In this document: in pieces, positions 43,395 to 59,293 of the stretch | Layout of the letters: each line of letters starts with the position of its first letter | How positions within the stretch are numbered: the stretch's first letter is position 1 | Origin: an uncultured virus (IMG/VR IMGVR_UViG_3300024308_000303) | Lineage: Duplodnaviria > Heunggongvirae > Uroviricota > Caudoviricetes | Length of the DNA stretch: 64,000 nucleotides | Reading direction: 5' to 3' (one strand) | Virus record (IMG/VR): IMGVR_UViG_3300024308_000303 | Notes under the pieces: model-generated | Told to the model about the DNA's origin: nothing | Seen by the model: only the letters and a program-made list of their open reading frames with translations | Databases searched by the model: none | Position numbers and translations under genes: made by a program

Positions 43395-43476
43395 GATTAA
43401 GTCTCTTGAATCTCTAAATATTTAAGCAATTATACATTATTTTGAGTCAAGATGCAAGAAAAGACACCGAAGTGTC

Positions 43477-43803: not shown

Positions 43804-43884
43804 AATAGAATATCCTCGTTGATTTAATCATTTGAGTATATCAAAAAAAATCAAAAATGTCCACAAAAAGAGGTTGATTAATGG

Positions 43885-44997
43885 TCAAAAATGACCATCA
43901 TCAATCAACATTTTAAGAATATCAAAATCACTAATCATGTTACTAACATGCTTCGAACGGGTATTATAACCACGAACAGAATCATAAATAATATTATCAT
44001 CACTATCAAAATTATTCATGTGATACTCTGGTGATTTCAAATAACCATCAAGATGGTCCAAATCAACTGGATACATAGGAGCACCATAAGAGTCCATAAT
44101 ATGATTCATTACTTCAACATAAGTCAAATCATCAGAAGTCCAATCTTGAATCCTGTCTTTCATATGATCTACTGAAATAGCAACACTATTAAAGACTTTG
44201 ATAGTGCCAGAAGATTTTTCACGAACATAGACATAAACCACATTTTGACTACGTTGGAACATCATTTCACACCTATCATTAGATGCTTGATATGCAAAAT
44301 TATCATGGTCGTTATAAATGAACTGATTGTTGACAGTTGCTTTCTCTTTGATAAGGAATTTAAACCATTTATCAAAAATATAATTCAAATTGCCATTAAC
44401 TTCTGGAATAGATACCATTGGGTTCTCTTCCAAAGCCAGTAAAGTATCACAACTTTCCTGATCAATAAGAACTTCTGCTTTACGGCAAAGGTCAATAAAG
44501 TGCTCTGAAATAAAATAAGTCATAGGCAAATACATTCCAAAACCAATCACACCACATTTAACAAAGCGATCATAAGGAGTATCAAGTGCAAAATCATCTG
44601 ATGTATGACCAATAGCAAGTTCTTTAAAACGGTCTTTAAGTACAGAAATATCATCAGTTACTGTTTCATTAAACTTAGGATCAATTGCAGAGAAATCACC
44701 TTTATAAAGGCGATAAATTGAAACTAATCCATAGCGTTCTGACTTTTTAAAATGAAAATCAATACCATCAACAGCAATAAGAGCTTCGGCTGGTTTACCA
44801 CGAGATAATAAAGATTCTCTAAAGCGATCAGAAAATTCACGATCACTCATAATCCTTTGCATAAACGCATCGTCCATCACTGGATATTCAAGTTCGAAAA
44901 GATTGAAAGTATTTGATTTGACAACAACACCATCAACGTTACCACTAACAAGAGCTTGCAGCAATTTAAGAGCAACGGTTTCCAATGCAAAGTTCAT
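43885..44997 (-). CDS. Paralog pair C, member 2
   Basis: LDHLDGYLKSPEYHMNNF..IIYDSVRGY, shared with 45830-46951. Confidence 0.85.
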   Translation of the reverse strand: MNFALETVALKLLQALVSGNVDGVVVKSNTFNLFELEYPVMDDAFMQRIMSDREFSDRFRESLLSRGKPAEALIAVDGIDFHFKKSERYGLVSIYRLYKGDFSAIDPKFNETVTDDISVLKDRFKELAIGHTSDDFALDTPYDRFVKCGVIGFGMYLPMTYFISEHFIDLCRKAEVLIDQESCDTLLALEENPMVSIPEVNGNLNYIFDKWFKFLIKEKATVNNQFIYNDHDNFAYQASNDRCEMMFQRSQNVVYVYVREKSSGTIKVFNSVAISVDHMKDRIQDWTSDDLTYVEVMNHIMDSYGAPMYPVDLDHLDGYLKSPEYHMNNFDSDDNIIYDSVRGYNTRSKHVSNMISDFDILKMLIDDGHF

Positions 44998-45049
44998 AAA
45001 TCTCTCCTTTAAATTTGTTAAGGATTATAACATAGTTTCGAATGGTTTT

Positions 45050-45247
45050 CTAGAATTTTTCTTTGTAGAATAGTTTTGAAAACAACATTGTAAGCAAAGG
45101 AATACAAATAGTTGGAAGGAAAATAGCTAAAGATACACCAATCCATTGTACTGGGTACTCAACTAAGACACCAATAAAAATAAATAGACCAATAATAGCA
45201 AAATGTTTTTCAAAATTGAAGAAGAAAGAACGTGTAAAAGTTTTCAT
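45050..45247 (-). CDS. Small 2-TM membrane protein
   Basis: Two hydrophobic segments. Confidence 0.6.
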   Translation of the reverse strand: MKTFTRSFFFNFEKHFAIIGLFIFIGVLVEYPVQWIGVSLAIFLPTICIPLLTMLFSKLFYKEKF

Positions 45248-45283
45248 GTAAATGCAACAACCATATTAAATTAAAGTGAATAC

Positions 45284-45766
45284 TCAATTAAACGAGTATT
45301 CTAAAGATTCTGTGTTAGACGAATGTTTGAATACAAAAATAGCACCAGTGCCTTTTGTGCTTGGATCAATACGCTCCATTAGTGGAATGTATAAATCTTT
45401 ATAAAGGGATTCAATGTCTGTAGTATCAATGGCTCGACTGCAACTAAATCCCAGTTGAATGATTTCTTCTGCTACATTGTCTTTATATCCAAAAATCCAA
45501 TCAATAACATCAAGCGTTCTGGTTGTAAATTCAATATTTCCATTACCATCATGCTCGGTATGCTCATTAAAAAGAAAAACCTTAGAATAAATTTCATATT
45601 CTTCGATCAACAATTCTTTTTTAGCAACATCTGGATTACTTAGGATATTTAGAAGCTTATCATGAATTTTACGCTCTTCAAATGCAACACTTGGAATAAA
45701 ATCGAAAACGAGTTCAAATTCTTTAAGTAATTTAAATTTTAGAGGATTATGTTGTACCAGATGCAT
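45284..45766 (-). CDS. Hypothetical protein
   Basis: Start refined to MHLVQ. Confidence 0.72.
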   Translation of the reverse strand: MHLVQHNPLKFKLLKEFELVFDFIPSVAFEERKIHDKLLNILSNPDVAKKELLIEEYEIYSKVFLFNEHTEHDGNGNIEFTTRTLDVIDWIFGYKDNVAEEIIQLGFSCSRAIDTTDIESLYKDLYIPLMERIDPSTKGTGAIFVFKHSSNTESLEYSFN

Positions 45767-45829
45767 GATAGATACCTGTCTGTTAAAGTATGCGACAATT
45801 ATATCACAAAACAAGACGACTGAAAAGCA

Positions 45830-46951
45830 TCAGTCGTCATCATCTTCATAATATTTCAAGATGTCATTCAAAAGAGTAAAATCACTCATCGCATTTTGAG
45901 CATGAGCAGAATTAATCTTATAACCTCTTGCTGTATCGTAAATAATACCAAATTCAATATTGAAATTATTGAAATAATAAGATGGTGTTTTTAGATAACT
46001 ATCCAAATGATCAAGATTGGCATAGTAAATATCATAACTATAAGGTTTCATAACATTGGTAACAGCATCCAAATAAGTATATTTTTCTTTAGAATAGGAG
46101 TCCAAATCACATTCTGATGATGGGAAAACTGCACAACTGTTCCATACTTTAATACGTTTTGTAGATTTTTCACGAATATAGACGTAGATTGTATTTTGGC
46201 TTTTCTGAACCATTAACTGATAAATATCATTCTCTTCAAAATAAGCATAGTTGTCAGAATCATTAAATACAAATGGCTTATCTACAGTTGCATTTTTAGC
46301 AACCAAAAATGGGAACCAATTTTTAAACATACGATTTAGATCACGGTTATATGCTGTTGCATGAAAATTATCAAATTCACACTGCCTAAATTGAGCAATT
46401 TCATTTAATTGATTAGAAGTGAAGGCTTCTGGAAATTGTTCACATAAATCTAAGAAAGCAGGATCACAAAATTCTGCTACATCGTCTGAAAGAATAACTG
46501 CTTTGAAAGATGCATCCTTCTTTTTATCCATCAAAAATGAGTCGCGTGGAATATCTGCTGCAATACGCAAGAACATTTTTTCAAATTTAGCAGGATCAAT
46601 GGTAACAAGGGCTTGATAATCAGGGTTAAGTTTTTTTGCATCAATTTTTTTATGTCGAGTAACGATGATGCCAGTTTTATTAGGGTAACGATGAAAAACG
46701 TAAGTATATCCATCAATTTTAATAGTGGCTTCACCACCCAAACGAATTGCTGCTAGTTGTTGCCCCATATATTTTACAACTGAATCATGATTTTCACCAA
46801 AAAGATCATTTTCATCTGTTTGATCACTGTAAATGCTCATAGCCTCATCAGACAATACAGGAAATGTGTTTTTCTGGACTTTTACTTTGGATGAACGGCG
46901 AGTAAGAAAATAATGCAAGAGATTAGATGCAAATTTTTGTGATTGAGACAT
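45830..46951 (-). CDS. Paralog pair C, member 1
   Basis: LDHLDSYLKTPSYYFNNF..IIYDTARGY. Confidence 0.85.
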   Translation of the reverse strand: MSQSQKFASNLLHYFLTRRSSKVKVQKNTFPVLSDEAMSIYSDQTDENDLFGENHDSVVKYMGQQLAAIRLGGEATIKIDGYTYVFHRYPNKTGIIVTRHKKIDAKKLNPDYQALVTIDPAKFEKMFLRIAADIPRDSFLMDKKKDASFKAVILSDDVAEFCDPAFLDLCEQFPEAFTSNQLNEIAQFRQCEFDNFHATAYNRDLNRMFKNWFPFLVAKNATVDKPFVFNDSDNYAYFEENDIYQLMVQKSQNTIYVYIREKSTKRIKVWNSCAVFPSSECDLDSYSKEKYTYLDAVTNVMKPYSYDIYYANLDHLDSYLKTPSYYFNNFNIEFGIIYDTARGYKINSAHAQNAMSDFTLLNDILKYYEDDDD

Positions 46952-46977
46952 AAATAATCCTTAATTAAAAAAGGGGC

Positions 46978-47172
46978 CTATGCCCCTTGGTTGAAATAGT
47001 TCTTGCTGAATTTATATGCAGGTTGACTATGAAAAATATGAGTTATATTCATTTTCTCTGAAAAAGACAAACCAACACACAATATTAGTCCAATAAAAGC
47101 CCACACATTAGTCGTAGAAACAAACAGAGTAAAACTTACTAATGTAAGAATTTTTAACATTAACATTCTCAT
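46978..47172 (-). CDS. Small membrane protein
   Basis: AGGAGG RBS; hydrophobic N-terminal half. Confidence 0.65.
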   Translation of the reverse strand: MRMLMLKILTLVSFTLFVSTTNVWAFIGLILCVGLSFSEKMNITHIFHSQPAYKFSKNYFNQGA

Positions 47173-47242
47173 AGTCCCTCCTAATATATGACTTTTAGAA
47201 TGACAAAGATTATATCACAATATAAATAAATCGTCAATTATT

Positions 47243-47527
47243 TTAAGAGTTGCATTCTCCACACCCACAAAGACCATCAAGGTATTCTTGTTTTGCTTTT
47301 AAATGAATGATTGAAGCCATCTTTGCTCGCTTAACTTCAATAATAGAAACATCAGTAGCATTAGTGTATTCATTTACAATAGCCCACAAAGCATGAATCT
47401 CAGTGTTAAGATCTTCAACGAAGTCTTCATCTTTCAATGAATCATCGGCTTTAAATGAAGTATAAAGTGCTTGTTTTTTTTCAATGATTGACAAAAATTT
47501 AACCAAAACAGTAGTATCTTTATTCAT
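47243..47527 (-). CDS. Hypothetical protein
   Basis: Ends LCGCGECNS. Confidence 0.7.
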   Translation of the reverse strand: MNKDTTVLVKFLSIIEKKQALYTSFKADDSLKDEDFVEDLNTEIHALWAIVNEYTNATDVSIIEVKRAKMASIIHLKAKQEYLDGLCGCGECNS

Positions 47528-47539
47528 ATTTAATCTCTC

Positions 47540-48430
47540 TTATTCAATGCAAGGACTTACGTATTTAGCAAGACGTTTAGTTTCGTCATAGAAATACATA
47601 TCCAAATCTTCCAATTCACGACCTTCCAAACGTTTGATGAACTCTGCCATAACGCTGGTTGGAACCATTTTAAAATCTACAGTACCATTACTAAGCCTTT
47701 TAACAAAAAAAGGTTTATTGAATGGACGATCAAGAACAAATTCTTCAACTCGAACACTAAAACCTAAAGGAGCAATAGCCTCCTTAATCAGATTTAGAGA
47801 ATGACCTTCCTTTTCAAAAACCAATTCATCCGAAGACAAACTATAAACTGATTTAACATCCACACCAACTGCCATAACACGTTCAGCAATTAGATTCATC
47901 ATGTAATATTGAATCTTTTGTTGACGCTGTGGATTCAAGTTACCAAACAGAATTTGACGAATTTGTTTACTAATTAACATGTATTCATTGAAACCACGAC
48001 TCAAAGCAAAATCATTGTAAGTTGTATGACCATCAAAGATTTCAGGATTAACAAACATAAATGATTGGAAGTTTGCCTTTACCAAATCAATGCTGATAAA
48101 AGTTTTACCAGCATTAGGTGATTTATAAAGCTCTTTTGCCTGAATCGAGATTTCTTTCTTGAATTGATTCATATCAAGAGTATTGAATGCTGCATACTCT
48201 GGTTTATCTTTCACATAATCCAAAGTGGCATTAACCACTTGACGGTTGTAATCAAATACTTTTTCACCACCAAAATCATTGAAAGTACGCTGAAAAATGT
48301 CATACTTTTCAAATGATTGATAGTATGGGTCTATCAAAGCCATCAGGTGAGAGAAATAAGGATCAACATCAACTGCAACTGGCAGCTTGAGATCTTTAAG
48401 AAAGTTTTTGTTGTAGAGAGAAACGTTCAT
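47540..48430 (-). CDS. Hypothetical protein, possible polymerase palm-like fold
   Basis: FISIDLVKANF and SLSSDELVF resemble palm motifs A and C; the function call is tentative. Confidence 0.7.
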   Translation of the reverse strand: MNVSLYNKNFLKDLKLPVAVDVDPYFSHLMALIDPYYQSFEKYDIFQRTFNDFGGEKVFDYNRQVVNATLDYVKDKPEYAAFNTLDMNQFKKEISIQAKELYKSPNAGKTFISIDLVKANFQSFMFVNPEIFDGHTTYNDFALSRGFNEYMLISKQIRQILFGNLNPQRQQKIQYYMMNLIAERVMAVGVDVKSVYSLSSDELVFEKEGHSLNLIKEAIAPLGFSVRVEEFVLDRPFNKPFFVKRLSNGTVDFKMVPTSVMAEFIKRLEGRELEDLDMYFYDETKRLAKYVSPCIE

Positions 48431-48491
48431 TTGTATAGTCTCACTGTTGATTTAATAAGGTAATTATAGCAAAAATCACCTCTAAAAGCAA

Positions 48492-49313
48492 TCAAATAGT
48501 TAACATATCGTAGACATCAATAAAGTTCAAAAGCTCTTCTTTTTTGTTGGTATAATGACGAATAAAAATATTTTCCAACATTTGAATCCAACAGCGATCA
48601 GTAAAATTAATGGAATAATAATTAATAGCACTTGATGCAACATAATCTGGTGACTCATAATATGCTTTCAAAAATTTTAAATAAACTAAAATATCTTCAA
48701 TTTTGTTAAGTCCTTTGCTTGGATAACTTGAAGAACTGCTATTGTTAGTGGATTTAAAATGATAACATGAATTATAAAGATTTTTTGATGTAGAGAAGTA
48801 ATAGACAAAAAAAAGTCTACTCTGTAATTCTGAATCAAGTTTAATGTAATCTTTCAATATCAGTTTATAGAGAGATGTACTGTCAGGGCTTAAATCAATT
48901 TCAAAACCACATGATACATTTAATGATTTGAAATGATTAATATTCAAAATGTCCAAAATAGATGAATTATACACCTCATTATGAGAATAATTTAAAAAAT
49001 GACTTTTAGAATGATGGGCATAATATACATCACCATTTGGTTTATAATGAATTACGCAAGAAATATCAATTACATGATCAAAAAATTTGTAATATAGATT
49101 AAGATTAATGTACTCTTTTTTATGTTTAGGTACATATTTCATATAACTAGAAAAAACCAAATTAGACTTAATCTCATCAGAATTAAGCTCTAAATTATTG
49201 TTACATTTGATTAATTGTGATAACAAAATAGAATAAATGTTATCAACTAAAAGATTAATAGAGGATTCTGAATGCTCATTGAAGTCATCAAATTTTGGAA
49301 AAACAATATTCAT
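48492..49313 (-). CDS. Hypothetical protein with MxxI tag
   Basis: GAGG RBS; ends VYDMLTI. Confidence 0.8.
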   Translation of the reverse strand: MNIVFPKFDDFNEHSESSINLLVDNIYSILLSQLIKCNNNLELNSDEIKSNLVFSSYMKYVPKHKKEYINLNLYYKFFDHVIDISCVIHYKPNGDVYYAHHSKSHFLNYSHNEVYNSSILDILNINHFKSLNVSCGFEIDLSPDSTSLYKLILKDYIKLDSELQSRLFFVYYFSTSKNLYNSCYHFKSTNNSSSSSYPSKGLNKIEDILVYLKFLKAYYESPDYVASSAINYYSINFTDRCWIQMLENIFIRHYTNKKEELLNFIDVYDMLTI

Positions 49314-49381
49314 CTTTCATCCTCAAATAGAAATGAGGCTATTATACTATAAATACATATTTAAGACAACAAAAAAGGTGC

Positions 49382-49978
49382 TTAGGCACCTTTTGTATTC
49401 TCTTCTTTTTGTTTGTGTAAGTCTTTTTGTTCCTGATTGAATTCTGGTTTAGAAGATTTCGGAATAAAAGATTTGAGTTCAGCAATAGTACCTACATATT
49501 TACCAACCAAATTAGCTTCTGGAACATAACCCCAGTAACGGCTGTCATAAGAATTCAATATGTTATCACCAATAGCAAAGTAACTTCCAGTAGGAATAAC
49601 TGCTCTGTGCATATTTGGCATATTTTTAGGAACTTCATTCACTGTAAATTTTTCTTCATTATAGTAAATAGTATCACCCGGTATCGCAACAATACGCTTA
49701 ATGAAGTTTGTACCTTCATCACCCGGCTTTCTAAATACAGCAATATCACCACGTTCTGGTTTACCATTTTCAAACAAAGTTACTTTTGTGAAAGGTATTT
49801 TTACACCATAAGCATGAACATCAACCAGAATCAAAGCTTTTTCATCAATGGTTGGAATCATTGAACCAGTTGGCACATATGAAGGGTTATATGCAAAAGA
49901 TTTAAAACATAGTATGAATAAAATAAGTAAAGCAGTCTTTTTATCTATTTTAAAAAAGTTAACAATTGATTTTAACAT
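49382..49978 (-). CDS. lepB: Signal peptidase I (peptidase S26)
   Basis: TM anchor; VPTGSMIPTI (catalytic Ser); RGDIAVF; FIKRIVAIPGD (catalytic Lys); GDNILNSYDSRYWG. Confidence 0.93.
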   Translation of the reverse strand: MLKSIVNFFKIDKKTALLILFILCFKSFAYNPSYVPTGSMIPTIDEKALILVDVHAYGVKIPFTKVTLFENGKPERGDIAVFRKPGDEGTNFIKRIVAIPGDTIYYNEEKFTVNEVPKNMPNMHRAVIPTGSYFAIGDNILNSYDSRYWGYVPEANLVGKYVGTIAELKSFIPKSSKPEFNQEQKDLHKQKEENTKGA

Positions 49979-50083
49979 GATATCCTCTTGATTTAACAAT
50001 AGCATCCTATCATTAAAAAAAAATAAATCAAATTAAAATATAGAAAAATACTGCCGAAACAGTATTTAATGATAGGTCAACAA

Positions 50084-50611
50084 TTAATTAACAGCAGTAT
50101 AGAGAACGGCTTTAGCTTTTTCGCACTTAACTTGTTGTTTAGCTTTCCAAGAAAAATGTTCAACAATATGACTGTTTGGACGAATAACAATCAAATTTTT
50201 TGAAATAGTGGAAAGATAATATAACATGGTGTTTAGGTATGATTTTTCTACCAAATCAATTGCATAACTGAATACAATCACATCAACTGATGGCAATTGT
50301 GCTAAACCATTTGCAACATCTTCAAAAGAATATGAAAAAGTTAAATTGCCTGTTTCATGTAGATAACGTTCATGGAGAAATTTATCACAACCAGAAACTA
50401 AAATATCTGGATACTTGTTCTTCAAGTGCTTGGACACAAGACCGTCACCACAAGCAAAATCAAGCACACTCTTGAATTCTTGATTCCATAGGGCATCAAG
50501 GCAAGTCAATGCAAAGACTGCATGTGGATTATGATAACTATCCGCATTGTCACTGTAGTAAGTGTCAACACCTAATGTCTCATATTCTTTTCGGATTGAT
50601 AAAGTAGTCAT
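50084..50611 (-). CDS. Class I SAM-dependent methyltransferase
   Basis: VLDFACGDGLV; GCD; DVIVFSYAIDL. Confidence 0.85.
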   Translation of the reverse strand: MTTLSIRKEYETLGVDTYYSDNADSYHNPHAVFALTCLDALWNQEFKSVLDFACGDGLVSKHLKNKYPDILVSGCDKFLHERYLHETGNLTFSYSFEDVANGLAQLPSVDVIVFSYAIDLVEKSYLNTMLYYLSTISKNLIVIRPNSHIVEHFSWKAKQQVKCEKAKAVLYTAVN

Positions 50612-50656
50612 AATAAAGACTCCAACTCTATATTGAAGCCTTATTATAGCATATTA

Positions 50657-51175
50657 TTAACAGTTTTGGCTATCAAAAATATGCGAAAACATAAAACAAT
50701 CATTTAAACTGAAGATGTCAAAATAAGTAGCATGAGAAGGTACTTTAGAATCTTTTGGATAAACATTTAAATCCAATAAAAATTGTTCAAGCTCAAAAAT
50801 GTCAGATTTACGTTCAACATCTGTTTCATATTCAGTATTATTAATGAATTCAATAATCATGTGCTTAAATAGCGTACCATTAACAATATATGAGCCATTG
50901 TGATCATCACCTTCACGACCACCAGTGACACAAAACATGACAACTTCGCCAGCGTAGGTAACATAAAACAATTTCCAAACACGGCGATGATCAAATTTAT
51001 GGTCAATAATGTAATGAATATCAATATTATCAAAAACAGTTTTACAATCTAACAAATAAGCAAGATTAAAAACAAGAGAATAATAATGACCAGTTAAAAC
51101 AGAAACATCTTTAGATTTTGAAACAACTGGATAATCAAGCAAATCATTGAAAGTCCACATAATTACCTCAAACAT
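50657..51175 (-). CDS. Hypothetical protein
   Basis: FDHRRVW..GGREGDDH motif; the start may be MWTF. Confidence 0.78.
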   Translation of the reverse strand: MFEVIMWTFNDLLDYPVVSKSKDVSVLTGHYYSLVFNLAYLLDCKTVFDNIDIHYIIDHKFDHRRVWKLFYVTYAGEVVMFCVTGGREGDDHNGSYIVNGTLFKHMIIEFINNTEYETDVERKSDIFELEQFLLDLNVYPKDSKVPSHATYFDIFSLNDCFMFSHIFDSQNC

Positions 51176-51815
51176 TGACCATTTCAGTTAAAACACCATA
51201 ATGTTTAAAATCAAAACTACCATCAGAATTATACTCAAGCATGCCATCCCAAGCAGCAATAGCTTTATTCCTAACCAAACCTAAACGGTTGTTTTTGATA
51301 TTACCATCCAAATCAAAAGCAATATACATTGAAGTATGATTGGCAGAACCAATTTTATTTTTATTTGAAACTAATGATGACAAAGAAGAATTGGGATGGT
51401 CAAAATTTAAACGGATTTCATTTTCGTCGGAGTCTTGCCAATCAAAATCAAAATCCATAAATACTTTAACCTGCTCATGATAAGAAATCATTTTATTATT
51501 AACATGATCAAGTAAACGAATCCCTTCAAAAAAGTCAACGTATTGATTGCCAATGTCAACAATCTTCATTAATCTATCACTAAGTTTGACTTTAGGGACA
51601 ATTTTTCCATTTTTATATTTTAAAAAGTTGAAATTAACGGAGTCACCAATTTCACCATGTAATAGCACAGCCTTATTATGACTTGTAGTAAGACTAAATT
51701 CAAATGCAGCAGTTTGCTTAATGGTTTTTAAATCAACATCAAATAAATTAAAAACTTGATTATTTTGTTTTAAAATAAGCTCAAGTTCATTTTGATTTAA
51801 ACGAGGATATGTCAT
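51168..51815 (-). CDS. Hypothetical protein with MxxV tag
   Basis: LKYKNGK block resembles 2718-3347 and 4007-4648; ends LTEMVNV. Confidence 0.8.
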   Translation of the reverse strand: MTYPRLNQNELELILKQNNQVFNLFDVDLKTIKQTAAFEFSLTTSHNKAVLLHGEIGDSVNFNFLKYKNGKIVPKVKLSDRLMKIVDIGNQYVDFFEGIRLLDHVNNKMISYHEQVKVFMDFDFDWQDSDENEIRLNFDHPNSSLSSLVSNKNKIGSANHTSMYIAFDLDGNIKNNRLGLVRNKAIAAWDGMLEYNSDGSFDFKHYGVLTEMVNV

Positions 51816-51870
51816 TGTAATGCTCTCTTAAATTTTAAGAATTATAGCAAAATATTTAATTTAAATCAAT

Positions 51871-51893
51871 AAAAAAAGCCTCCGAAGAGGCTT
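51871..51893 (-). terminator. Intrinsic terminator of the 23S-mimic RNA
   Basis: AAGCCTC-TTCG-GAGGCTT followed by a T tract; same core as 666-686. Confidence 0.88.
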
Positions 51894-51897
51894 GTTT

Positions 51898-52168
51898 AAT
51901 TGGTGTGCTTGTACGCCAAACAGGATTAACCAAGACCACTACCATGGCACCTTGCCAAGTTTCATGGCAAGTTGGAGGCTTTAGCTGATTCGTCTTGAAT
52001 ATTTCTGGTTTACTTTAAAGTGGATTCGCCAAAAACACCCTTGTCTCAATTGTCCTTCGATAACCATTGTTTCCAATGTCGAAGTATGCCTTGCCTTAAT
52101 CCAAGCACCGATGGCCTTTGCCTGACTCTTTAAAGGATGGCTGCTTTTAAGCCCACCTTCCAATCAAC
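51898..52168 (-). ncRNA. Stand-alone structured RNA mimicking the 23S rRNA uL11-binding GTPase-associated centre (H43/H44)
   Basis: 52160-52127 GAAGGTGGGCTTAAAAGCAGCCATCCTTTAAAGA and 51916-51903 GCGTACAAGCACAC match 23S rRNA nt ~1055-1088 and ~1091-1104; closed by GATTGG/CCAATT; own promoter and terminator. Confidence 0.85.
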
Positions 52169-52174
52169 AAAACA

Positions 52175-52203
52175 ATTATAGCAAAATATTAATCAATATT
52201 CAA
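52175..52203 (-). promoter_or_regulatory. sigma70-like promoter of the 23S-mimic RNA
   Basis: TTGAAT-17 bp-TATAAT with extended TG; the -35 lies in the last codons of the upstream gene. Confidence 0.8.
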
Positions 52204-53002
52204 CCATTTCTACAACTGGTTTAATATGTTCTTCAAAATAATCACAATACTTTTTTGTCAATTCTCGATGACAAGAATTGTCGATAACTGAAATAGACTT
52301 AGTTAAACATGTAAATGGAAGCAAAAATTCATTAAAATGTTTCGCTATATCATCCAATGTAGATTTTCTTTCATCAATCAAAAATTGTTTTTCCTTTATG
52401 ACACCATCGAGAGAAATCAATTCAAGATGGAAAACATTCTTGTAATATGAAATTGAAAATTCCGCCTTTTCTGTTGATGTAGAATAGGGATCAAAAGTAT
52501 ACTCACCAGAACGATAATCTCTGCTAAGATAATACGAAACTTGATTCACCAATTTTAAACCATCGAATACAACATTGCTCACTTTATAATCTAAACAAAC
52601 GCCTTTAGCTGAAAATGAGATACGACCGCCATAGGGTAATTCAATAGTCGAAAATGGCTGAATGATAGAAATGAAATTATCATAATTTTTAAAAAACGCA
52701 TATTTTTTATCAGTCAAAAATCGAAGAGATCTTGAAAAAACACAAACTGAAAAAGGAATCATCTTTTTTAGTTCCATAACAGTCTCATCAATATTAGGCT
52801 CTTCATTATTAAACTTGTTTGTGAGAATATAATCTGTAGAATAAGCCGGATTGCGAGATTTAACACTGTCCATAAAGAGGCCAATGTAATTATTGAAATT
52901 ATTATAATCAATATGATAAATTTCAAAACTATTATGATTAAATAGCTTATTATTTACAAGATCAGCAAATTTATTAATGAGTGAATTATTTGTAGTATTC
53001 AT
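52193..53002 (-). CDS. Paralog family A distant member; MxxY tag
   Basis: FLLPFT...RELTKKYCDYFEEHIKPVVEMVEY; start refined after GGAG. Confidence 0.82.
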   Translation of the reverse strand: MNTTNNSLINKFADLVNNKLFNHNSFEIYHIDYNNFNNYIGLFMDSVKSRNPAYSTDYILTNKFNNEEPNIDETVMELKKMIPFSVCVFSRSLRFLTDKKYAFFKNYDNFISIIQPFSTIELPYGGRISFSAKGVCLDYKVSNVVFDGLKLVNQVSYYLSRDYRSGEYTFDPYSTSTEKAEFSISYYKNVFHLELISLDGVIKEKQFLIDERKSTLDDIAKHFNEFLLPFTCLTKSISVIDNSCHRELTKKYCDYFEEHIKPVVEMVEY

Positions 53003-53017
53003 GATGTTTAACTCCAA

Positions 53018-53419
53018 TTAATAAGAATGAACAATATAAACTTCGTAATCACTATGATCTTCATCATAATAGCCATTTTCAATACAAGCTTCTATATCGT
53101 CCTCATCACATTCAGGATCTTGTTCAAGAATAAGCTTTCTAAAAATAGCTTCTGCCTTTTTGTTACCTTTGTCATCATCAATAAAGTCAATTTTTTGTTT
53201 GATAGCACCATCAAAATATTCAATGACAGAAACAACTTGAATTTCACTAGTTTTCGCTTCATCACGCTTATCAAAAAATGCTTTAACAGCTTGGAAATTA
53301 GAAAAACCTGCAAGTTGAGAGAATCGTTCGCGGAATTTTGAAAGAGTCATTTTTTCAGATTTGCTTTCTGAATACAGCATTTCTGTGGCTTTTTTCAAAT
53401 GATTAAAATTTGTAAACAT
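53018..53419 (-). CDS. Hypothetical protein with N-terminal helical domain (resembles 'glyoxalase superfamily protein' N-termini)
   Basis: LKKATEML..MTLSKFRERFSQLAGFSNFQAVKA pattern; acidic C-terminus; GGAG RBS. Confidence 0.7.
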   Translation of the reverse strand: MFTNFNHLKKATEMLYSESKSEKMTLSKFRERFSQLAGFSNFQAVKAFFDKRDEAKTSEIQVVSVIEYFDGAIKQKIDFIDDDKGNKKAEAIFRKLILEQDPECDEDDIEACIENGYYDEDHSDYEVYIVHSY

Positions 53420-53434
53420 AGATAGATCTCCAAT

Positions 53435-53600
53435 AAGTTAATTTATTCAGTTCGGAAAGTTGCTCTCGTTACCTTTATCTGAAAACTAATTAGAGTGACT
53501 AATTGATTTTAAGAGAAATCGAATTTTACCAATGTGAGAGCGGCTGGCATTCGAAAGCCATGCACAAGATGACACCCATTTGTGGTCTTGTTGATTGCGA
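53435..53600 (-). ncRNA. Candidate structured 5' leader
   Basis: ACAAGA/TCTTGT; TGGC-TTTCGAAT-GCCA; GCTCTC/GAGAGC enclosing GATTT/AAATC and AATTAG/CTAATT; promoter TTTACA-17 bp-TATAAT at 53606-53634. Confidence 0.55.
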
Positions 53601-53668
53601 GGTTAATTATATCAAAATAATGCTCTCATGTAAAGGGATATCGAAAAGAAAAATAAATACAGATTCAA

Positions 53669-53697
53669 TTGACTTTTAATGCTCTATTTGATAATAT
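53669..53697 (+). promoter_or_regulatory. sigma70-like promoter (divergent pair)
   Basis: TTGACT-17 bp-TAATAT with extended TG. Confidence 0.65.
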
Positions 53698-53757
53698 TGA
53701 AAACGTTCGTAAATTCAATAAATATAGCCTTTTAATAGCATATTATTAGGAGGATTT

Positions 53758-54132
53758 ATGAACAAGTTACAATCATTAATTGGGAAAACAGTTGTAGAAG
53801 TAAAAGGAAACAGATTTGATGATGATTTTGTTATGGTTACAAAATGTGGGCTTGTATACACATTATACCATAACCAAGATTGTTGTGAGCATGTTTATCT
53901 AGAAGACATTATTGGAGACAATGATGATTTACTTGGTGAAATTGTTTTGGCTGAAGAGGTAACAAACAGAGATATAGAACCACCAAACGAACAAAGCTAC
54001 GCTGATTCATATACGTGGACATTCTATAGACTTGCAACAAAAAAAGGATTAGTAGTTTTGAGGTTCTTCGGATCTTCCAACGGTTACTATTCAGAAGAAG
54101 TATCATTGACTATAACAGAACTTGAAAAATAG
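53758..54132 (+). CDS. Conserved phage-type hypothetical protein
   Basis: YHNQDCCEHVYLEDI..SYTWTFY..GSSNGYYSE; AGGAGG RBS. Confidence 0.85.
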   Translation: MNKLQSLIGKTVVEVKGNRFDDDFVMVTKCGLVYTLYHNQDCCEHVYLEDIIGDNDDLLGEIVLAEEVTNRDIEPPNEQSYADSYTWTFYRLATKKGLVVLRFFGSSNGYYSEEVSLTITELEK

Positions 54133-54153
54133 TTCTTTTTTTGGAGATTTTTT

Positions 54154-54663
54154 ATGACATTAAGAGAAAAAATTCTTGAGCGTGCTTATCAATTTGATAA
54201 TGATGAAGGTAAAAAAGTTTACAATATTTTCTCAATATTAAACGATATGAAAAAATTTAAAAATCTTGATTATTGGGATGCAAAAGATTCTGATGGGGAT
54301 TTTGATCGATGGTGTGATTCAAAAGGATATCCAGAAGTAGATCCAAAAGGAAAAAACCGAAGGCAGAGTAACATTTGGTTCGCAGAACAACAAAAAGAAA
54401 TCAAAGATGGTCTTTGGATTTCACCACAATATTGTCCATTTATTGATATTTTTGTTGATGGAGAACTATACCCAGAATTGTTAATTCCACAAAATTATAT
54501 GCGTGGTGACGAATATGCTGATTTAAATTTTAAAGAATTGCTCAGCCATTGTGAAAAATTAGACATTGAAGAATATGGAAAAGAAGATTATCGAGTGACC
54601 CTTGCAAAAGAATTGAAAGATCTTTTTATTGATGATTTTTCTTTTACAACATATCAAGAATAA
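54154..54663 (+). CDS. Hypothetical protein
   Basis: GGAG RBS. Confidence 0.78.
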   Translation: MTLREKILERAYQFDNDEGKKVYNIFSILNDMKKFKNLDYWDAKDSDGDFDRWCDSKGYPEVDPKGKNRRQSNIWFAEQQKEIKDGLWISPQYCPFIDIFVDGELYPELLIPQNYMRGDEYADLNFKELLSHCEKLDIEEYGKEDYRVTLAKELKDLFIDDFSFTTYQE

Positions 54664-54672
54664 CAAAATACT

Positions 54673-54700
54673 AAAAAAGACCTGAAAAGGTCTTTTTTTT
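54673..54700 (+). terminator. Intrinsic terminator
   Basis: AAAAAAGACCT-GAAA-AGGTCTTTTTTTT. Confidence 0.85.
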
Positions 54701-54776
54701 ATTCTAAATAATTCTTTTAAATATTGATATATTTACAAAATAGTGTATGTTATAAAAAAAACATTAAGAGAATTAT

Positions 54777-55247
54777 ATGACTAAAAAATTACCATTCCTT
54801 TTATTCAGTGCATTAAGTGCTATGACTCTAGTTGCATGTGCTGACAGTGCATCTGATGATAAAGTAATTAATGCCGAAAATTATGAAGTCAAAGTTGCAA
54901 AAAATATAAGTGATACAAGTAAATCGAATTGTGTCTATGATGAAGATAAAAGTATCATGGTATCACAGAGAATTAAGCCACTTGGGCCATATCAAATAGA
55001 CGACTATATTGCAATATATGGAGATAATGTAATTGGGATTGAAAGTCCAACTAATAATTTGAAATTACCTGATGGACTCAGTAAAGGCAAATATGTTGAA
55101 AGCTTTGGAGAAGAAGCTTATTATGAATTATGTGGAGATAACCTTGAAAAGTATCCACATTTAGAGCTTGCAGAAGTTAATATACCAGATACATCGCCTG
55201 ATCAAATAGACAATACAGAAGAAGAAATAGAAGAGCCTACAGAGTAG
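54777..55247 (+). CDS. Lipoprotein
   Basis: Signal peptide with lipobox LVAC; acidic tail. Confidence 0.8.
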   Translation: MTKKLPFLLFSALSAMTLVACADSASDDKVINAENYEVKVAKNISDTSKSNCVYDEDKSIMVSQRIKPLGPYQIDDYIAIYGDNVIGIESPTNNLKLPDGLSKGKYVESFGEEAYYELCGDNLEKYPHLELAEVNIPDTSPDQIDNTEEEIEEPTE

Positions 55248-55254
55248 GCTTTTT

Positions 55255-55467
55255 TTAACGCAATCTCCATTGATCTGCAAAAAATTTAGGCATGGTTATA
55301 ATGGCACAAAGATACAATAGAGTTTCAGAGCTAAGTTTCCAGTAATTGTATGTAGTACCTGCCATTAAAGATTCATAAAATGGAATATACACATTTTTGA
55401 AAATTACAAAAGTTGCCATTGGAAAAATTATTGTAAATGCAATTAACCTAACTTTATCTTTAAACAT
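55255..55467 (-). CDS. Small 2-TM membrane protein
   Basis: GAGG RBS; two hydrophobic segments. Confidence 0.68.
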   Translation of the reverse strand: MFKDKVRLIAFTIIFPMATFVIFKNVYIPFYESLMAGTTYNYWKLSSETLLYLCAIITMPKFFADQWRLR

Positions 55468-55531
55468 AGAGTCCTCAACAAAAAAAAGAGCCTGATGGCT
55501 CTCTTTAATATAACAGATATATCAATAAAAC

Positions 55532-55783
55532 TCAACCCAAAGTCATTATGTTGGACTGTAGTTTTTCAAGTTTCTTAATAGCTTTTTGATAAGTGCTAGT
55601 CCTGTAAACTGGTCTGAATACTCTGTATGGGCCATTAATTGGATTACGAGTAATGTTGTTTACATCTTGATAAATATCCCAATATCCTACTTCATATTTT
55701 TTAAAAAATTTGCTTTTATTATAATTAAACTCAACTTTACCTGTTTTCACAAGTTGCTGACTAACGTTCACTGGAAAGTACAT
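55532..55783 (-). CDS. Hypothetical protein
   Basis: AGGTG RBS; promoter and leader hairpin CGGACA/TGTCCG upstream. Confidence 0.7.
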   Translation of the reverse strand: MYFPVNVSQQLVKTGKVEFNYNKSKFFKKYEVGYWDIYQDVNNITRNPINGPYRVFRPVYRTSTYQKAIKKLEKLQSNIMTLG

Positions 55784-55917
55784 GATTTCACCTTTTATTT
55801 AATGTATGTTTTTTATGTTTGTGTATTTTACGGACACTATGTCCGAGATCGTAACACTATTATAACACCAGTATAAAAAGTAATCAATTCCTGTAATGAG
55901 ACATTTTATTACATTTT

Positions 55918-56376
55918 TTAGTCTTCATACAAAAGAGCATGGTTAGACCAGAACTCTTTAACAAAAAGCAGTTCATCTGGATCGGTTACATTAAAATCAT
56001 GTTCTTCACGGGCAGATTTAATACCAAAATAAGCAGTAAGTAGTCTAAATACATTATTGTAACGAGTACGTCTGATAACAAGACAAATTGTTGAACATGG
56101 AACAGGCTCTCGATCAAGAACCATTTTTGAAGGCCATTTACGTCCATGTCGAGTTTTGTAAACAATGGTATCACTATCGGTAACAGTTACACATGTTGTG
56201 AAACCAACCTTGTCTCCAAGGTCTACAAGAACTTTTTGAAAACTTTCTTCAGTTGGATTAAACAGATTGAATGCTTTTTCAAGATGTTCGAGAACATCAG
56301 AATGAACTTTCATATGTTTATTACTGTACATGAGAACATTACCATTTGATGAAACAATTCGATCAATATTTTTCAT
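55918..56376 (-). CDS. Hypothetical protein
   Basis: VGFTTCV..LLTAYFG..EFWSNHAL. Confidence 0.8.
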   Translation of the reverse strand: MKNIDRIVSSNGNVLMYSNKHMKVHSDVLEHLEKAFNLFNPTEESFQKVLVDLGDKVGFTTCVTVTDSDTIVYKTRHGRKWPSKMVLDREPVPCSTICLVIRRTRYNNVFRLLTAYFGIKSAREEHDFNVTDPDELLFVKEFWSNHALLYED

Positions 56377-56588
56377 TTTTTAGATTTCCGGTGAGCGGCC
56401 CAATAACCTCGTGACCAAAGACCTCTTTTGCGACGATCATTGTCACAAGCATATGAAGTTGAAGCAAGAATAGGATATGGGTTCATAGAAAAAGAATTTC
56501 CACGAATGGAATCATCATAACCTTCCTTCCAATATTTAATCCAATTAAGCCTTGAAAGAAGAGTGCGAATTTTCATAATGACCTCCAA
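56373..56588 (-). CDS. Small hypothetical protein
   Basis: EGY..NPY..WSRGY pattern; the start is probably MKIR after GGAGG. Confidence 0.68.
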   Translation of the reverse strand: MEVIMKIRTLLSRLNWIKYWKEGYDDSIRGNSFSMNPYPILASTSYACDNDRRKRGLWSRGYWAAHRKSKK

Positions 56589-56724
56589 TATAATAAATTA
56601 AGTATATCATTTTAGACAAAAAAAGACAAGAAACATACAATAACAAATAATACAAGATCTTAAATAAATTGACACAAATACAAATAATGCTAACATTATA
56701 GTATAAAAACAAAAACAAAAAGAT

Positions 56725-57540
56725 ATGAAAAAGAGTATACTTGGAATTATTATTGCTGCTGCAGCAATACAAACTGCATCTGCAAATTATACTGTTATTA
56801 TTGGCGTTAAAGATAAAGACATAAACTTTATAAACAATGTAGAAAAGCCAGCAGAATCCAAGTGGATCAGCATTGAAGATAACATTACAGATTGGGTTTA
56901 TGGTAATACTGAATGTAACAAATGGTTGCCACTACCAGATGATATAGAGTCTGGAGTAGAGTATATACAAAATGGTACTGATTGTGTAACGAACAAAGAA
57001 AGAACAATTGAAAAAAGAGAACAGAACACAGTTAATGGAGAAATTAGAATAATTTCGACTGAAACTGAATCCACCATTGATACAGAAAAACTAGCTACAA
57101 GAGAAGCTATCGGTTCATCTACAGCACAAATATTCAATATAACAGTTGGGTTACATCCAAACTATTCAGCTTGCTCAATAAAACTAAAAGGGTATGGAAG
57201 AAATTCTGGCTGCAATACCGTAACAGGTAATTATGGCAATATTGATGATAATACTATTAGAATCAATGGTATTGAAGAGACTTTTGCACAAATATACACT
57301 TACAAAACAGGCACATCGACCACATGCACACAAGCTTTACAGGTAGTAAATAGTGGTGGCAGATATGACAGCTTACCAAGTACATTAGAAATGGTCTGGA
57401 ATGGAAAACCATATGTAGGAACTAAGAACAAAGATGCCTATCCTTCGTTCTCTGGGTTTAAATTTACAGCACCATGTTCAGAGTTTTTTGATGTTTTACC
57501 TGCTGGTTCAACATTACAAATTAAAGTAAATGGCCATTAA
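56725..57540 (+). CDS. Exported or surface protein, Cys/Thr-rich
   Basis: Signal peptide MKKSILGIIIAAAAIQTASA; TTGACA promoter upstream. Confidence 0.8.
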   Translation: MKKSILGIIIAAAAIQTASANYTVIIGVKDKDINFINNVEKPAESKWISIEDNITDWVYGNTECNKWLPLPDDIESGVEYIQNGTDCVTNKERTIEKREQNTVNGEIRIISTETESTIDTEKLATREAIGSSTAQIFNITVGLHPNYSACSIKLKGYGRNSGCNTVTGNYGNIDDNTIRINGIEETFAQIYTYKTGTSTTCTQALQVVNSGGRYDSLPSTLEMVWNGKPYVGTKNKDAYPSFSGFKFTAPCSEFFDVLPAGSTLQIKVNGH

Positions 57541-57872
57541 TAGAAAGGAAAGTCATCATCGTCATCGTCTGATTGGCCATTTTTTGGCTCATAGAAATCG
57601 CTGATTTCTTCTTCTTTCTCAAAGATCTTGATTACTGATTCATCTTCTGTGATTGCAATAGGAACAAATTTATCTTGTTTGTCTACCGAGAAATATCTGT
57701 ATTCAACTGAATACAATAGATCATCTTGGGCACGATAAATAAACAGCCCTGATGTTTCTTCATGAGAATGCCAAGCATCATCATAGATAACTTCTTTTAC
57801 ATTATCAATATCAGCTTGTGAAAAGCTTGCAAAGTTATCAGTGAAGAATTCAGAAAGCTCTATTTGGTTCAT
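57537..57872 (-). CDS. Acidic hypothetical protein
   Basis: GGAG RBS; ends SDDDDDDFPFY. Confidence 0.75.
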   Translation of the reverse strand: MNQIELSEFFTDNFASFSQADIDNVKEVIYDDAWHSHEETSGLFIYRAQDDLLYSVEYRYFSVDKQDKFVPIAITEDESVIKIFEKEEEISDFYEPKNGQSDDDDDDFPFY

Positions 57873-57996
57873 AATGTTGACTCCAATAAGTTTAGGTTTA
57901 TTATACCAAAAAAGATCATAAAATAAAAGAGATTTAAATTAAAATATTGAAAAGTGCCATCAAAATGATAGCATAAAATTAATAAGGAGGGAAAAC

Positions 57997-58170
57997 ATGT
58001 ATATGATAACAAGCGTATTAACCATCGCTCTGGCTTTAATGATGGGTCTTGCAACGATATTTATAAGTGATATGTCACTTTGGGAAAATAAATTAATTGT
58101 AGGCGTTACCTTGGTGTTTTCAATAACTGTTATAATTCACATCATAATGAAATGGAAAGAACTTAATTGA
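57997..58170 (+). CDS. Small 2-TM membrane protein (57 aa, absent from ORF track)
   Basis: AAGGAGG RBS; MYMITSVLTIALALMMGLATIFISDMSLWENKLIVGVTLVFSITVIIHIIMKWKELN; terminator at 58178-58204. Confidence 0.72.
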   Translation: MYMITSVLTIALALMMGLATIFISDMSLWENKLIVGVTLVFSITVIIHIIMKWKELN

Positions 58171-58215
58171 TGGAAAATAAAAAAGGCCCCAAAGGAGCCT
58201 TTTTCTGTTTATTAC

Positions 58216-58338
58216 TTAACGACGCTTATCTCTTTCAAAACGACGCCAATCTCGTTCTTTTTGTCGTTCAACATCGGCTTCACGTTGCATATAAGCCAGT
58301 TCAATTTCACGTTGCACTTTTTCACTTTGTTTCTTCAT
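58216..58338 (-). CDS. Small charged helical protein (40 aa, absent from ORF track)
   Basis: MKKQSEKVQREIELAYMQREADVERQKERDWRRFERDKRR; AGGAG RBS; similar to 40404-40520. Confidence 0.75.
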   Translation of the reverse strand: MKKQSEKVQREIELAYMQREADVERQKERDWRRFERDKRR

Positions 58339-58583
58339 AATGTAACTCCTAAGACAGTTAAATAAATTTTTTAAATCGTTAAATCTTCTCAATCATCAAT
58401 CTTAATATATTTAACTAAGTTTTACATTGGCTTCATAAATCATTCTCCTAAAAAACCATAATCAGAATTGTTAAGTATCGTGTGCGTTTTAAAAATCAAG
58501 CTTGCATGCATATTGGTTTGCCGCGATTAGCTCTGTATTTTACACGACTTCGGTGTTTAAACCTTATCTTTTTAACTTGCTGT

Positions 58584-58612
58584 ATTCTAACACTTTTTTT
58601 CTTATTTGGCAA
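58584..58612 (-). promoter_or_regulatory. sigma70-like promoter with a long leader
   Basis: TTGCCA-17 bp-TAGAAT with extended TG. Confidence 0.7.
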
Positions 58613-58679
58613 GCTTTTTTATTTTTATGCTTGTTTGTTGTGTTGAAGCTATAGTATCAATTTGAAATTTTTTTTGCAA

Positions 58680-59063
58680 CTACTTTTTGTACTTTCTTAC
58701 TGTTTTCTTTTCAAAAAAATGAAGATGTCTCATACCAACACAATCAAGATATTGAACACCAATTACAGACCCACAGCATAAACATTCGATTGGCTTGTCA
58801 TAATTACCACAACACCCCCAACCTTTGCTGTATTTTAATTGTTGAGGATCTAAAAAACAATCGTCTCCAGTAATGTAATCATTTTTATATTTTAACGTAT
58901 ATGCTGATAACCACATAACATGACGGAAAAGAGAAAAACTGCCTTTACAAACAAAATTCTCATCACCAGAAATACCCAATCGTCTGATTGGATAAAGTGA
59001 TGTTGTATTAATCATTTGACATTTTCTACAAGCTATATACATAAGAATTAAGAGGTCTGACAA
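58680..59063 (-). CDS. Cys-rich (zinc-binding) hypothetical protein
   Basis: CRKC, GCCG, CLCCG, DC. Confidence 0.75.
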   Translation of the reverse strand: MSDLLILMYIACRKCQMINTTSLYPIRRLGISGDENFVCKGSFSLFRHVMWLSAYTLKYKNDYITGDDCFLDPQQLKYSKGWGCCGNYDKPIECLCCGSVIGVQYLDCVGMRHLHFFEKKTVRKYKK

Positions 59064-59290
59064 GTATATTTAAGTTTGAATGAATCAACAGACTCTTTAT
59101 TATGAACACCATAATTAGAGCTAAAATAAACAACACCATCAACAACACGATTAACAGTTAGCAGAATAGGTGTGCAATATTTATCAACAATAGTATCCCC
59201 CATCAACCAAAGCTGACCATTTTTCGGTTCAGGTTGTTCTACCTTTTTATTGGAAAACAAATTTTTAAAGATATTCATGTGAATCTCCAA
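59048..59290 (-). CDS. Hypothetical protein
   Basis: PKNGQLW motif; the start is probably MNIF. Confidence 0.68.
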   Translation of the reverse strand: MEIHMNIFKNLFSNKKVEQPEPKNGQLWLMGDTIVDKYCTPILLTVNRVVDGVVYFSSNYGVHNKESVDSFKLKYTCQTS

Positions 59291-59293
59291 TCG

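Follow-up and report, generated by a model that had tools for sequence, protein, structure and literature searches.

A predicted stand-alone phage RNA gene resembling the GTPase-associated centre of 23S rRNA, with a variable domain inserted in helix 44

RNAs that imitate an rRNA protein-binding site outside the ribosome are known from the autoregulatory mRNA leaders of ribosomal protein (r-protein) genes; the L10 leader, for example, imitates the helix 42 (H42) region that neighbours the rRNA domain considered here. Phages also encode small stable RNAs, often beside tRNA genes and with plausible roles in mimicry, such as the species 1 and 2 RNAs of T4 (rnaC and rnaD) and pseudo-ToxI of phage phiTE, which is reported to mimic an antitoxin RNA, not rRNA (PMC3475682). 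In this study, we analyzed a locus on the minus strand of a 64,000-nucleotide (nt) stretch of DNA, hereafter the window, from an uncultured virus of the Caudoviricetes (IMG/VR record IMGVR_UViG_3300024308_000303). Here, the two ends of a short RNA gene correspond to the two halves of the GTPase-associated centre (GAC) of 23S rRNA, separated by a 208-nt insert. We consider it rather probable that this locus is a stand-alone non-coding RNA gene belonging to a widespread phage family of GAC mimics, that the insert is a variable accessory domain, and that the RNA serves off the ribosome as a decoy for ribosomal protein uL11 or another GAC ligand.

While r-protein leaders resemble this RNA in imitating an rRNA site, they are cis-acting parts of mRNAs and imitate it loosely, whereas the phage RNA is a separate, near-exact copy with a terminator. 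Moreover, it adjoins no r-protein gene and matches no Rfam leader, and a search for the uL11 gene (PF00298) found none in the five complete genomes of phages carrying the RNA, although the control was found in 14 of 14 genomes. No family in Rfam 15 accounts for it (window and inserts of 20 loci), and full-text literature searches, judged on titles and abstracts, returned no description of a phage GAC mimic. Mimicry of rRNA by r-protein leaders is established, but we found no description of a separate, near-exact, self-closed GAC copy in large phages, and the family appears to be undescribed. New here are the rules of the junction, a census of the inserts, the fold of the insert subclass to which the window belongs, and the case against splicing.

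The GAC, or uL11-thiostrepton domain, is taken here to comprise the top of H42 together with H43 and H44 (Escherichia coli positions 1051-1108); the E. coli 23S numbering takes A1067 and A1095 as fixed points and differs by 4 bases from one counted from the annotated start of the reference 23S. A previous reading of the window, made from the sequence only, had described an insert whose exact removal restores a canonical rRNA junction, and its boundaries are exact: on the minus strand, the upstream flank ...UUUAAAGAGU (GAGU) ends at 52125, the insert (CAGG...CCUGUUUG, 208 nt) extends from 52124 to 51917, and GCGUACAAGCAC begins at 51916. Its removal does rejoin the two halves of the uL11-binding GAC, giving a 58-nt core that is identical to E. 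coli 23S at 43 positions (range among the 51 family sequences described below, 38–49). The 5' half matches 23S rRNA in 5426 of 5426 E. coli genomes, and the uninterrupted junction is present as TTTAAAGAGTGCGTAA in two of five bacterial genomes and as TTTAAAGAAAGCGTAA in two others, the search having covered genomes rather than rRNA genes specifically.

The term rRNA junction, however, implied an rRNA gene, and in this respect the previous reading has to be revised. The locus is a separate small RNA gene of about 300 nt (52172-51870), bracketed by promoter-like and terminator-like sites. Its GAC halves are flanked by a promoter, a closing helix (P1) and a terminator rather than by H42 and H45, and no rRNA family, including the large subunit (LSU) rRNA, reaches the Rfam gathering threshold in the 64-kb window, where a single tRNA is the only match. 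The 5' half (H43 hairpin, UUAAA turn and GAGU) occupies 52158-52125 and aligns without gaps to the 51-sequence set; the 3' half (a purine, then GCGUA..AGC-A-CAC, with A1101 paired to U1090) occupies 51917-51903; and CAGG...CCUG UUUG is found at the insertion site. P1 consists, in the window, of eight contiguous pairs, a bulge and three further pairs. The family shares with the 23S GAC all of its helix pairs, the nucleotides at U1060/A1088 and U1082-A1086, and the loops that contain A1067 and A1095. It differs in having A at position 1101, paired with U1090, where the E. coli 23S reference has U, and in being phage-encoded and free-standing, with a variable closing helix of its own and a domain of 44–337 nt grafted into H44. 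Closed by P1, the two ends of the RNA would thus rebuild the uL11-binding GAC, comprising H43, H44 and the nucleotides of the tertiary contacts.

We defined the family operationally, having found no published name for it. Using blastn, the 5' half was located in unannotated gaps of Pseudomonas phages Astolliot, pf16, UNO-G1W1 and Milchi, Aeromonas phage 4_4572, and Xanthomonas phage XacN1. The five of these that were inspected (all but Milchi) invariably show the 5' half, an insert, and then UUUGGCGUA..AGC.CACC; four of the five copies lie beside or among tRNA genes, and the XacN1 copy follows a gene annotated as '2'-5' RNA ligase'. Among cultured phages, the RNA is also present in Cronobacter phage GAP32 and Xanthomonas phage XaC1. 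When viral contigs were scanned with a 20-mer of the 5' half, 59 loci were identified, 58 of which have the 3' half downstream of an insert. In the remaining locus (L044 in our numbering), both halves are directly joined; every other family member has an insert at the same site. The flanks of about 450 nt contain tRNA genes in 35 of the 59 loci, all on the strand of the RNA and often abutting it (on both sides in L009). The copy in the window departs from this pattern, having a predicted promoter and terminator of its own. Scanning genome contigs for the 3' half returned 82 loci, against a chance expectation of about 140 by our own arithmetic; 13 of the 82 have the split architecture, and these are draft or metagenome-assembled contigs labelled Clostridiaceae, Ruminococcus, Neisseriaceae, Bacteroidales, Saccharibacteria and others. 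The viral-contig loci, the five GenBank phages, an additional locus (L066) and the window provided 51 distinct sequences (65 rows) for analysis; L044 was left out because our script found no P1 helix in it.

A covariance model built from eight members, excluding the window, matched the window at 51891-52172 (-) over model positions 1-140 of 140 (76.3 bits, E = 1e-20). Members whose insert can be spanned by the model score 66.9–106.3 bits, while lower scores (33–58 bits) or two separate hits are obtained for L044 and for members whose inserts reach about 280 nt or more. A second match in the window (35835-35967) is weak (11.8 bits, E = 0.087) and was taken as chance. With the same model, E. coli 23S reaches 43.5 bits and the T4 tRNA region yields no score; the T4 species 1 and 2 RNAs, considered as members, were rejected, as they contain no GAC sequence and gave no model hit. 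Paenibacillus phage Pd_22F (L276) was likewise rejected as a second insert-free member: its 53.2-bit hit is genuine 23S with H42 flanks. This unannotated stretch, at about 83.9–84.0 kb of 86.4 kb and near the end of the record, is probably host DNA, either packaged or mis-assembled. The Rfam bacterial LSU model also matches insert-free L044 (44 bits) and, in L011, extends across the 44-nt insert. It is context, not score, that tells insert-free members from rRNA.

All insert-bearing members share the insertion point U1090|G1091, between the U1090-A1101 and G1091-C1100 pairs of H44. In the 51 sequences, G1091-C1100 is invariant, C1092-G1099 is C-G in 49 and U-A in 2, U1090-A1101 is U-A in 46, U-G in 4 and C-A in 1, and G1087-C1102 is paired in 50. 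Pair 1058-1080 covaries (G-C 33, A-U 17, G-U 1), and 1082-1086 is U-A in 50 and A-U in 1. The pairs of P1, from 1055-1104 to 1047-1112, are each formed in 42–51 sequences, with two to six standard pair types per pair. A1067 and A1095, which both lie outside the search pattern, are kept in 46 and 47 sequences, respectively. The insert opens with a stem of 2–6 pairs as determined by script (mostly 3–6), which is member-specific in sequence (GGGA/UCCC, AGAG/CUCU, GAAU/AUUC, GGCC/GGCC, and CAGG/CCUG in the window), and it ends with a linker of UUU (U in 50, 50 and 48 of 51) plus a purine (G in 41, A in 10). With this covarying stem and UUU-purine linker, the insert would leave H44 at a fixed site, forming a three-way junction.

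To quantify the covariation of the core, we used an alignment of 24 members with a structure that we supplied. Paired cells account for 95.5% of this alignment, compared with 75.1% in 500 shuffles, none of which was as highly paired, and the covariation score is 0.572, compared with 0.176 in shuffles and 0.09–0.18 when partners are slid. Changes on both sides were observed at nine of nine P1 pairs and at four of four pairs of the basal insert stem. These results bear on the notion that the locus is non-functional, being either a decayed, captured host rRNA with a junk insert or a small protein gene (ORF, open reading frame, 51981-52163; 60 amino acids (aa), TTG start). Phage records can indeed contain real host 23S fragments, as Pd_22F illustrates, and the 60-aa ORF overlaps the RNA. 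However, the flanks are not rRNA, the closing helix that carries the compensatory changes is private to the family, the gene has a predicted promoter and terminator of its own, and over 60 distinct sequences, from phages that infect many different hosts, share this architecture. Furthermore, insert length and sequence vary freely, and therefore no reading frame is conserved. We regard a non-functional origin as extremely improbable.

The same evidence on the junction can be read in terms of an intervening sequence, namely a group I-like self-splicing intron or a sequence excised by a host or phage nuclease, with the flanking halves re-joined by a phage RNA ligase; either route would yield a GAC mimic of about 90 nt. 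Excision, possibly followed by re-ligation, had been raised in the sequence-only reading. Group I introns and rRNA intervening sequences are, like this insert, structured blocks whose removal restores an rRNA junction, and they likewise have U in front and usually G at the end. The junction left by removal is perfectly rRNA-like, U precedes the insert in 50 of 51 sequences and G ends it in 41 of 51, the window encodes both Rnl1-like and Rnl2-like ligases, and L044 indicates that the joined form is viable. Yet Rfam covariance models detected no group I intron, group II intron or small self-cleaving ribozyme at E ≤ 10 in 51700-52350, nor any intron or ribozyme in the inserts of 20 other loci at E ≤ 0.05. 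The inserts fall into 34 unrelated sequence clusters and thus have no common catalytic core, and those of 44–65 nt (L011, L013, L054) could not accommodate an intron core. The resemblance of the ends to splice sites is only partial: U and G are present in the window, but in 10 of 51 sequences the insert ends in A, and the near-invariant U is explained by the pairing of U1090 with A or G at 1101, which accounts for 50 of 51.

Nuclease excision fares no better. The basal stem of 2–6 base pairs (bp; mostly 3–6, and 4 in the window) is followed by asymmetric loops rather than by a long RNase III duplex, and no tRNA-splicing endonuclease was matched among the 80 window ORFs scanned. The ligase genes lie 17 and 24 kb from the RNA gene, and, by comparison with T4, they fit tRNA repair. 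Unlike group I introns and rRNA intervening sequences, the family inserts have no detectable catalytic core or common sequence family and do not reside in an rRNA gene. Excision, with or without re-ligation, is thus very unlikely, and the insert is best read as a built-in accessory domain, neither intron nor rRNA intervening sequence.

The accessory domain of the window belongs to a subclass shared with L062 (437-kb contig), L066 (179 kb) and L020/L055. Its motif GCCRTGGTNNNGGTCTTGGT was found at four loci in viral contigs, of which only L066 was new; a metagenome scan returned at least 120 loci, with the 5' half of the GAC in none of the matches listed, and the 60 inspected were unrelated GC-rich DNA. 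Within this subclass, the insert of the window constitutes a conserved domain of several helices and a loop-to-strand pseudoknot (Table 1). The counts that follow were obtained from an uncorrected MAFFT alignment of the window, L062 and L066, from which L020 was excluded, its P-i5 being misplaced. P-i2 retains nine of nine pairs in all three sequences, with two pairs changed on one side only. Changes on both sides are seen at 8 of the 12 pairs of P-i5 and at two of the seven pairs of P-i6. The loop motif of P-i5 (GAAUCCAC / UAAUCCUAC) is present in 4 of 64 inserts, and the pseudoknot that this loop forms with the strand just 3' of P-i2 retains five of five pairs, with one compensatory change (U-A to A-U in L066). 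By eye, its counterpart in L020 pairs CCUAC with GUAGG. Over the whole fold, 85.8% of positions are paired, compared with 76.4% in shuffles (none of the 500 as high), and 14 pairs show changes on both sides, compared with 7.1 in shuffles.

Both hairpins singled out by the sequence-only reading (P-i4 and P-i6) are present, and relatives have hairpins of different sequence in these places. As to its proposal that the insert ends pair with each other, CAGG/CCUG is the covarying basal stem, whereas the AAGGCCAU/GUGGUCUU helix was rejected: it competes with the better-supported P-i2 and with the pseudoknot, which uses its GUGG, and it is not kept in L066.

Across the family, the inserts are highly variable. 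The 64 inserts measure 44–337 nt (median 141) and form 34 blastn clusters, one with 22 members, including the window, and 27 singletons. An Rfam search with the inserts of 20 loci at E ≤ 0.05 identified no family, the matches being limited to tRNA, one tmRNA-like sequence and LSU on the GAC parts. Against the E. coli rrn operon (blastn-short), the top hits of the 64 inserts were 12–13 nt, no better than those of shuffled inserts (12 nt). Certain modules nevertheless recur in otherwise different inserts: a CCC(N4-7)GGUAAGG hairpin near the 3' end in 20 of 64, an AAGACCC...GAG motif in 4 of 64, and a UAAGAAC(N3-6)GAAUUGAC-like module in 5 of 64 otherwise dissimilar inserts (L239, L241, L022, L041 and L052), of which that of L239 contains the CCC...GGUAAGG module as well. 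This suggests that inserts are assembled from shuffled sub-motifs.

These recurrent modules, together with the conserved and covarying insert of the window, with its pseudoknot and conserved 20-nt loop, favour a model in which the insert is the working part, for example a factor-binding site, and the GAC copy a handle that recruits abundant uL11 to stabilise, localise or chaperone it. A cargo domain on a uL11-binding handle had also been proposed in the sequence-only reading, and part of that proposal stands: the flanks do rebuild the uL11 domain, and the insert is separately folded and conserved. However, the GAC copy is the sole part common to all members, and its loop nucleotides A1067 and A1095 are conserved despite having no role in helix formation. 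Because the GAC is constant while the inserts are hypervariable in length and sequence and L044 has none, the GAC copy seems to be the functional core and more than a simple handle. We therefore consider the insert-as-cargo model unlikely, though not negligible.

Our favoured interpretation, an off-ribosome decoy with the GAC copy as its core, can be outlined as follows. The insert would be retained in the mature RNA, which, judging from its sequence, would adopt the fold of the rRNA domain and could bind uL11. Since none of the five carrier genomes has a uL11 gene, that ligand must be host-derived. The RNA would then act as a decoy or sponge for uL11 or another GAC ligand, with the insert modulating or extending this function. 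RelA depends on uL11, and uL11 is exchangeable. Possible functions are (i) titration of uL11, which would leave ribosomes insensitive to RelA; (ii) capture of another GAC partner; and (iii) absorption of a GAC-directed attacker. A1067 and A1095 are dispensable for uL11 binding and matter for the binding of factors and thiopeptides; if this is right, their conservation suggests that the factor-facing side of the mimic is under selection as well. More tentatively, we suggest as one possibility that a modular, trans-acting GAC copy captures uL11, and perhaps translational GTPases, RelA or the tRNA elbow, with the insert as an arms-race or specificity module that varies between phages.

The third of these functions can also be taken as the sole one, the RNA absorbing a toxin, immune effector or thiopeptide that recognises H43/H44. 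A GAC-directed toxin does exist: Tre23 ADP-ribosylates H44 around positions 1095-1098 (PMC8661411). In keeping with such a decoy, the H44 loop is conserved at G1093, U1094, A1095 and A1098. Furthermore, phage tRNA genes neighbour the RNA at 35 of 59 loci, and carrier genomes encode RNA-repair enzymes, a context that is usually read as counter-defence for the translation apparatus. Conversely, we know of no phage-defence system that targets the GAC, although no search was made, and a stoichiometric decoy would be weak against a catalytic toxin facing tens of thousands of ribosomes. Moreover, positions within the Tre23 footprint vary: 1096 is A in 38 and G in 11 sequences, 1097 is U in 27, C in 20 and A in 4, and the window has C and A, respectively. 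A decoy directed solely at an attacker of the GAC thus seems rather improbable.

Several points count against the interpretation of the locus as a GAC mimic that captures uL11. First, positions 1069-1088 were fixed by the search pattern, so that no constraint can be deduced from the lack of variation there in the 51 sequences, and this stretch is independently sampled solely by the 13 sequences found via the 3' half. Second, the covariance-model score alone fails to separate insert-free L044 (51.1 bits) from true rRNA (43.5 and 53.2 bits). Third, the folding energy of the whole RNA is unremarkable (z = -1.23; 25 of 200 shuffles are equally good), the insert subclass has four members and its structure was derived from the window, inflating the paired percentage, and the pseudoknot is supported by one counted compensatory change and one seen by eye. 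Fourth, in contrast to most members, the copy in the window has no tRNA gene nearby, the only one (Leu-CAG) being 30 kb away. Finally, uL11 binding is predicted from conserved sequence and pairing only.

If the proposed function is correct, this would be the first virus-encoded free-standing decoy of an rRNA domain, and a modular GAC copy could dampen the stringent response, which depends on uL11, or protect translation against attack directed at the GAC. Should the RNA bind uL11 or other GAC partners, it would give viruses a new means of perturbing host translation or the stringent response. The fixed UUU-purine three-way junction with its swapped domains would, in addition, mark a site in the well-studied GAC fold that tolerates large grafts, which should be useful for RNA engineering and structural work.

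Table 1. Coordinates of the RNA elements, predicted gene signals and selected protein-coding genes in the window (P-i2 to P-i6, helices of the insert)
Feature	Position	Strand	Remarks
Promoter	52175..52203	-	TTGAAT, 17-nt spacer, TATAAT, TG ahead of -10; sigma-70-like, 10/12 consensus matches; predicted from consensus only
P1 closing helix, 5' strand	52160..52170	-	UUGUUGAUUGG; top of rRNA H42 plus family-specific extension
Helix 43 copy (A1067 hairpin)	52134..52158	-	Every helix pair kept
UUAAA turn (1082-1086) and GAGU (1087-1090)	52125..52133	-	GAGU, 5' strand of helix 44 up to the insertion point
Insert, including 3' UUUG linker	51917..52124	-	208 nt
Basal insert stem, 5' strand CAGG	52121..52124	-	Pairs with CCUG 51924-51921
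P-i2, 5' strand	52106..52115	-	GCCAUCGGUG, GCCAU(C)GGUG, C bulged; pairs with 51950-51941
P-i3			UUGG with CCAA; insert helix of the proposed fold
P-i4 hairpin	52055..52084	-	CUUCGA-CAUUG-GAAA-CAAUG-GUUA-UCGAAG; predicted; hairpin of relatives differs in sequence and length (by eye)
P-i5 hairpin	51997..52040	-	12-bp stem, conserved 20-nt loop CGAAUCCACUUUAAAGUAAA
Pseudoknot, loop side CCACU	52019..52023	-	In P-i5 loop; pairs with AGUGG 51940-51936
P-i6 hairpin	51951..51971	-	CUUGCCA-UGAAACU-UGGCAAG; unrelated hairpin sequences in relatives
P-i2, 3' strand	51941..51950	-	GUGCCAUGGU (GUGCC-AUGGU)
Pseudoknot, target side AGUGG	51936..51940	-	Just 3' of P-i2
Basal insert stem, 3' strand CCUG	51921..51924	-	
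Junction linker UUUG	51917..51920	-	Family consensus UUU plus purine
Upper helix 44 hairpin and 3' strand	51905..51916	-	GCGUACAAGCAC; positions 1091-1102, A1095 loop included
P1 closing helix, 3' strand	51892..51903	-	CCAAUUAAACAA
Intrinsic terminator	51869..51893	-	7-bp stem, UUCG loop; stem-loop 51893-51876, then U run
RegB-like endoribonuclease	12060-12512	-	Pfam
T4 Rnl1-like RNA ligase	27574-28710	-	Pfam
AlkB-type 2OG-Fe(II) (2-oxoglutarate- and iron-dependent) oxygenase	29445-30053	+	Pfam
Rnl2-like RNA ligase with OB-fold domain	34572-35657	-	Pfam

The window is phage DNA, the neighbouring ORFs matching PHROG families, and Pfam matches among its ORFs include a RegB-like endoribonuclease, RNA ligases resembling T4 Rnl1 and Rnl2, AlkB, NUDIX and dCMP deaminase. 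A megablast search of window positions 40000-60000 against GenBank phages returned no matches. The ORF upstream of the RNA gene (52193-53017) has no relatives in viral contigs or in the five records that hold L066, L062, L020, L033 and L032, and the ORF downstream of it has no Pfam or PHROG match. The product of a gene at 50084-50611 (-), located 1.3 kb downstream of the RNA, is a class I methyltransferase of 175 aa with a match to phrog_19153 ('tRNA methyltransferase', E = 1.6e-43).

The extended -10 motif TTTGCTATAAT is found at 27 sites in the window with at most one mismatch, compared with 6.8 expected (0 of 100 shuffles reach 27). Examples are 19708-19718, 48463-48473, 51841-51851 and 52175-52185, and the majority of the sites are on the minus strand, upstream of ORFs. 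The motif looks like the standard promoter of the window phage and probably represents a set of early or host-polymerase promoters.

Further observations concern tRNA genes. The only tRNA gene of the window (Leu-CAG, 21413-21499 (-)) lies beside the end of a 155-aa ORF (20931-21398 (-)) that matches only positions 126-251 of 411 of a bacterial topoisomerase family, and which may be a split or interrupted topoisomerase gene. In L017, a tmRNA-like match at 569-657 (-) (41.2 bits against a threshold of 47; E = 1.8e-13) adjoins a tRNA-Thr and a family member with a 312-nt insert. On the reverse complement of L066, just downstream of the RNA, there is a T-arm-like GGTTCGACTCC...CCA stretch that ARAGORN does not call as a tRNA and that may be a degenerate or intron-bearing one. 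Finally, L033 119-224 (-) and L051 4-154 (-), of 106 and 151 nt, match the Rfam tRNA model without an ARAGORN call, and they may be tRNA genes with long insertions beside family members.

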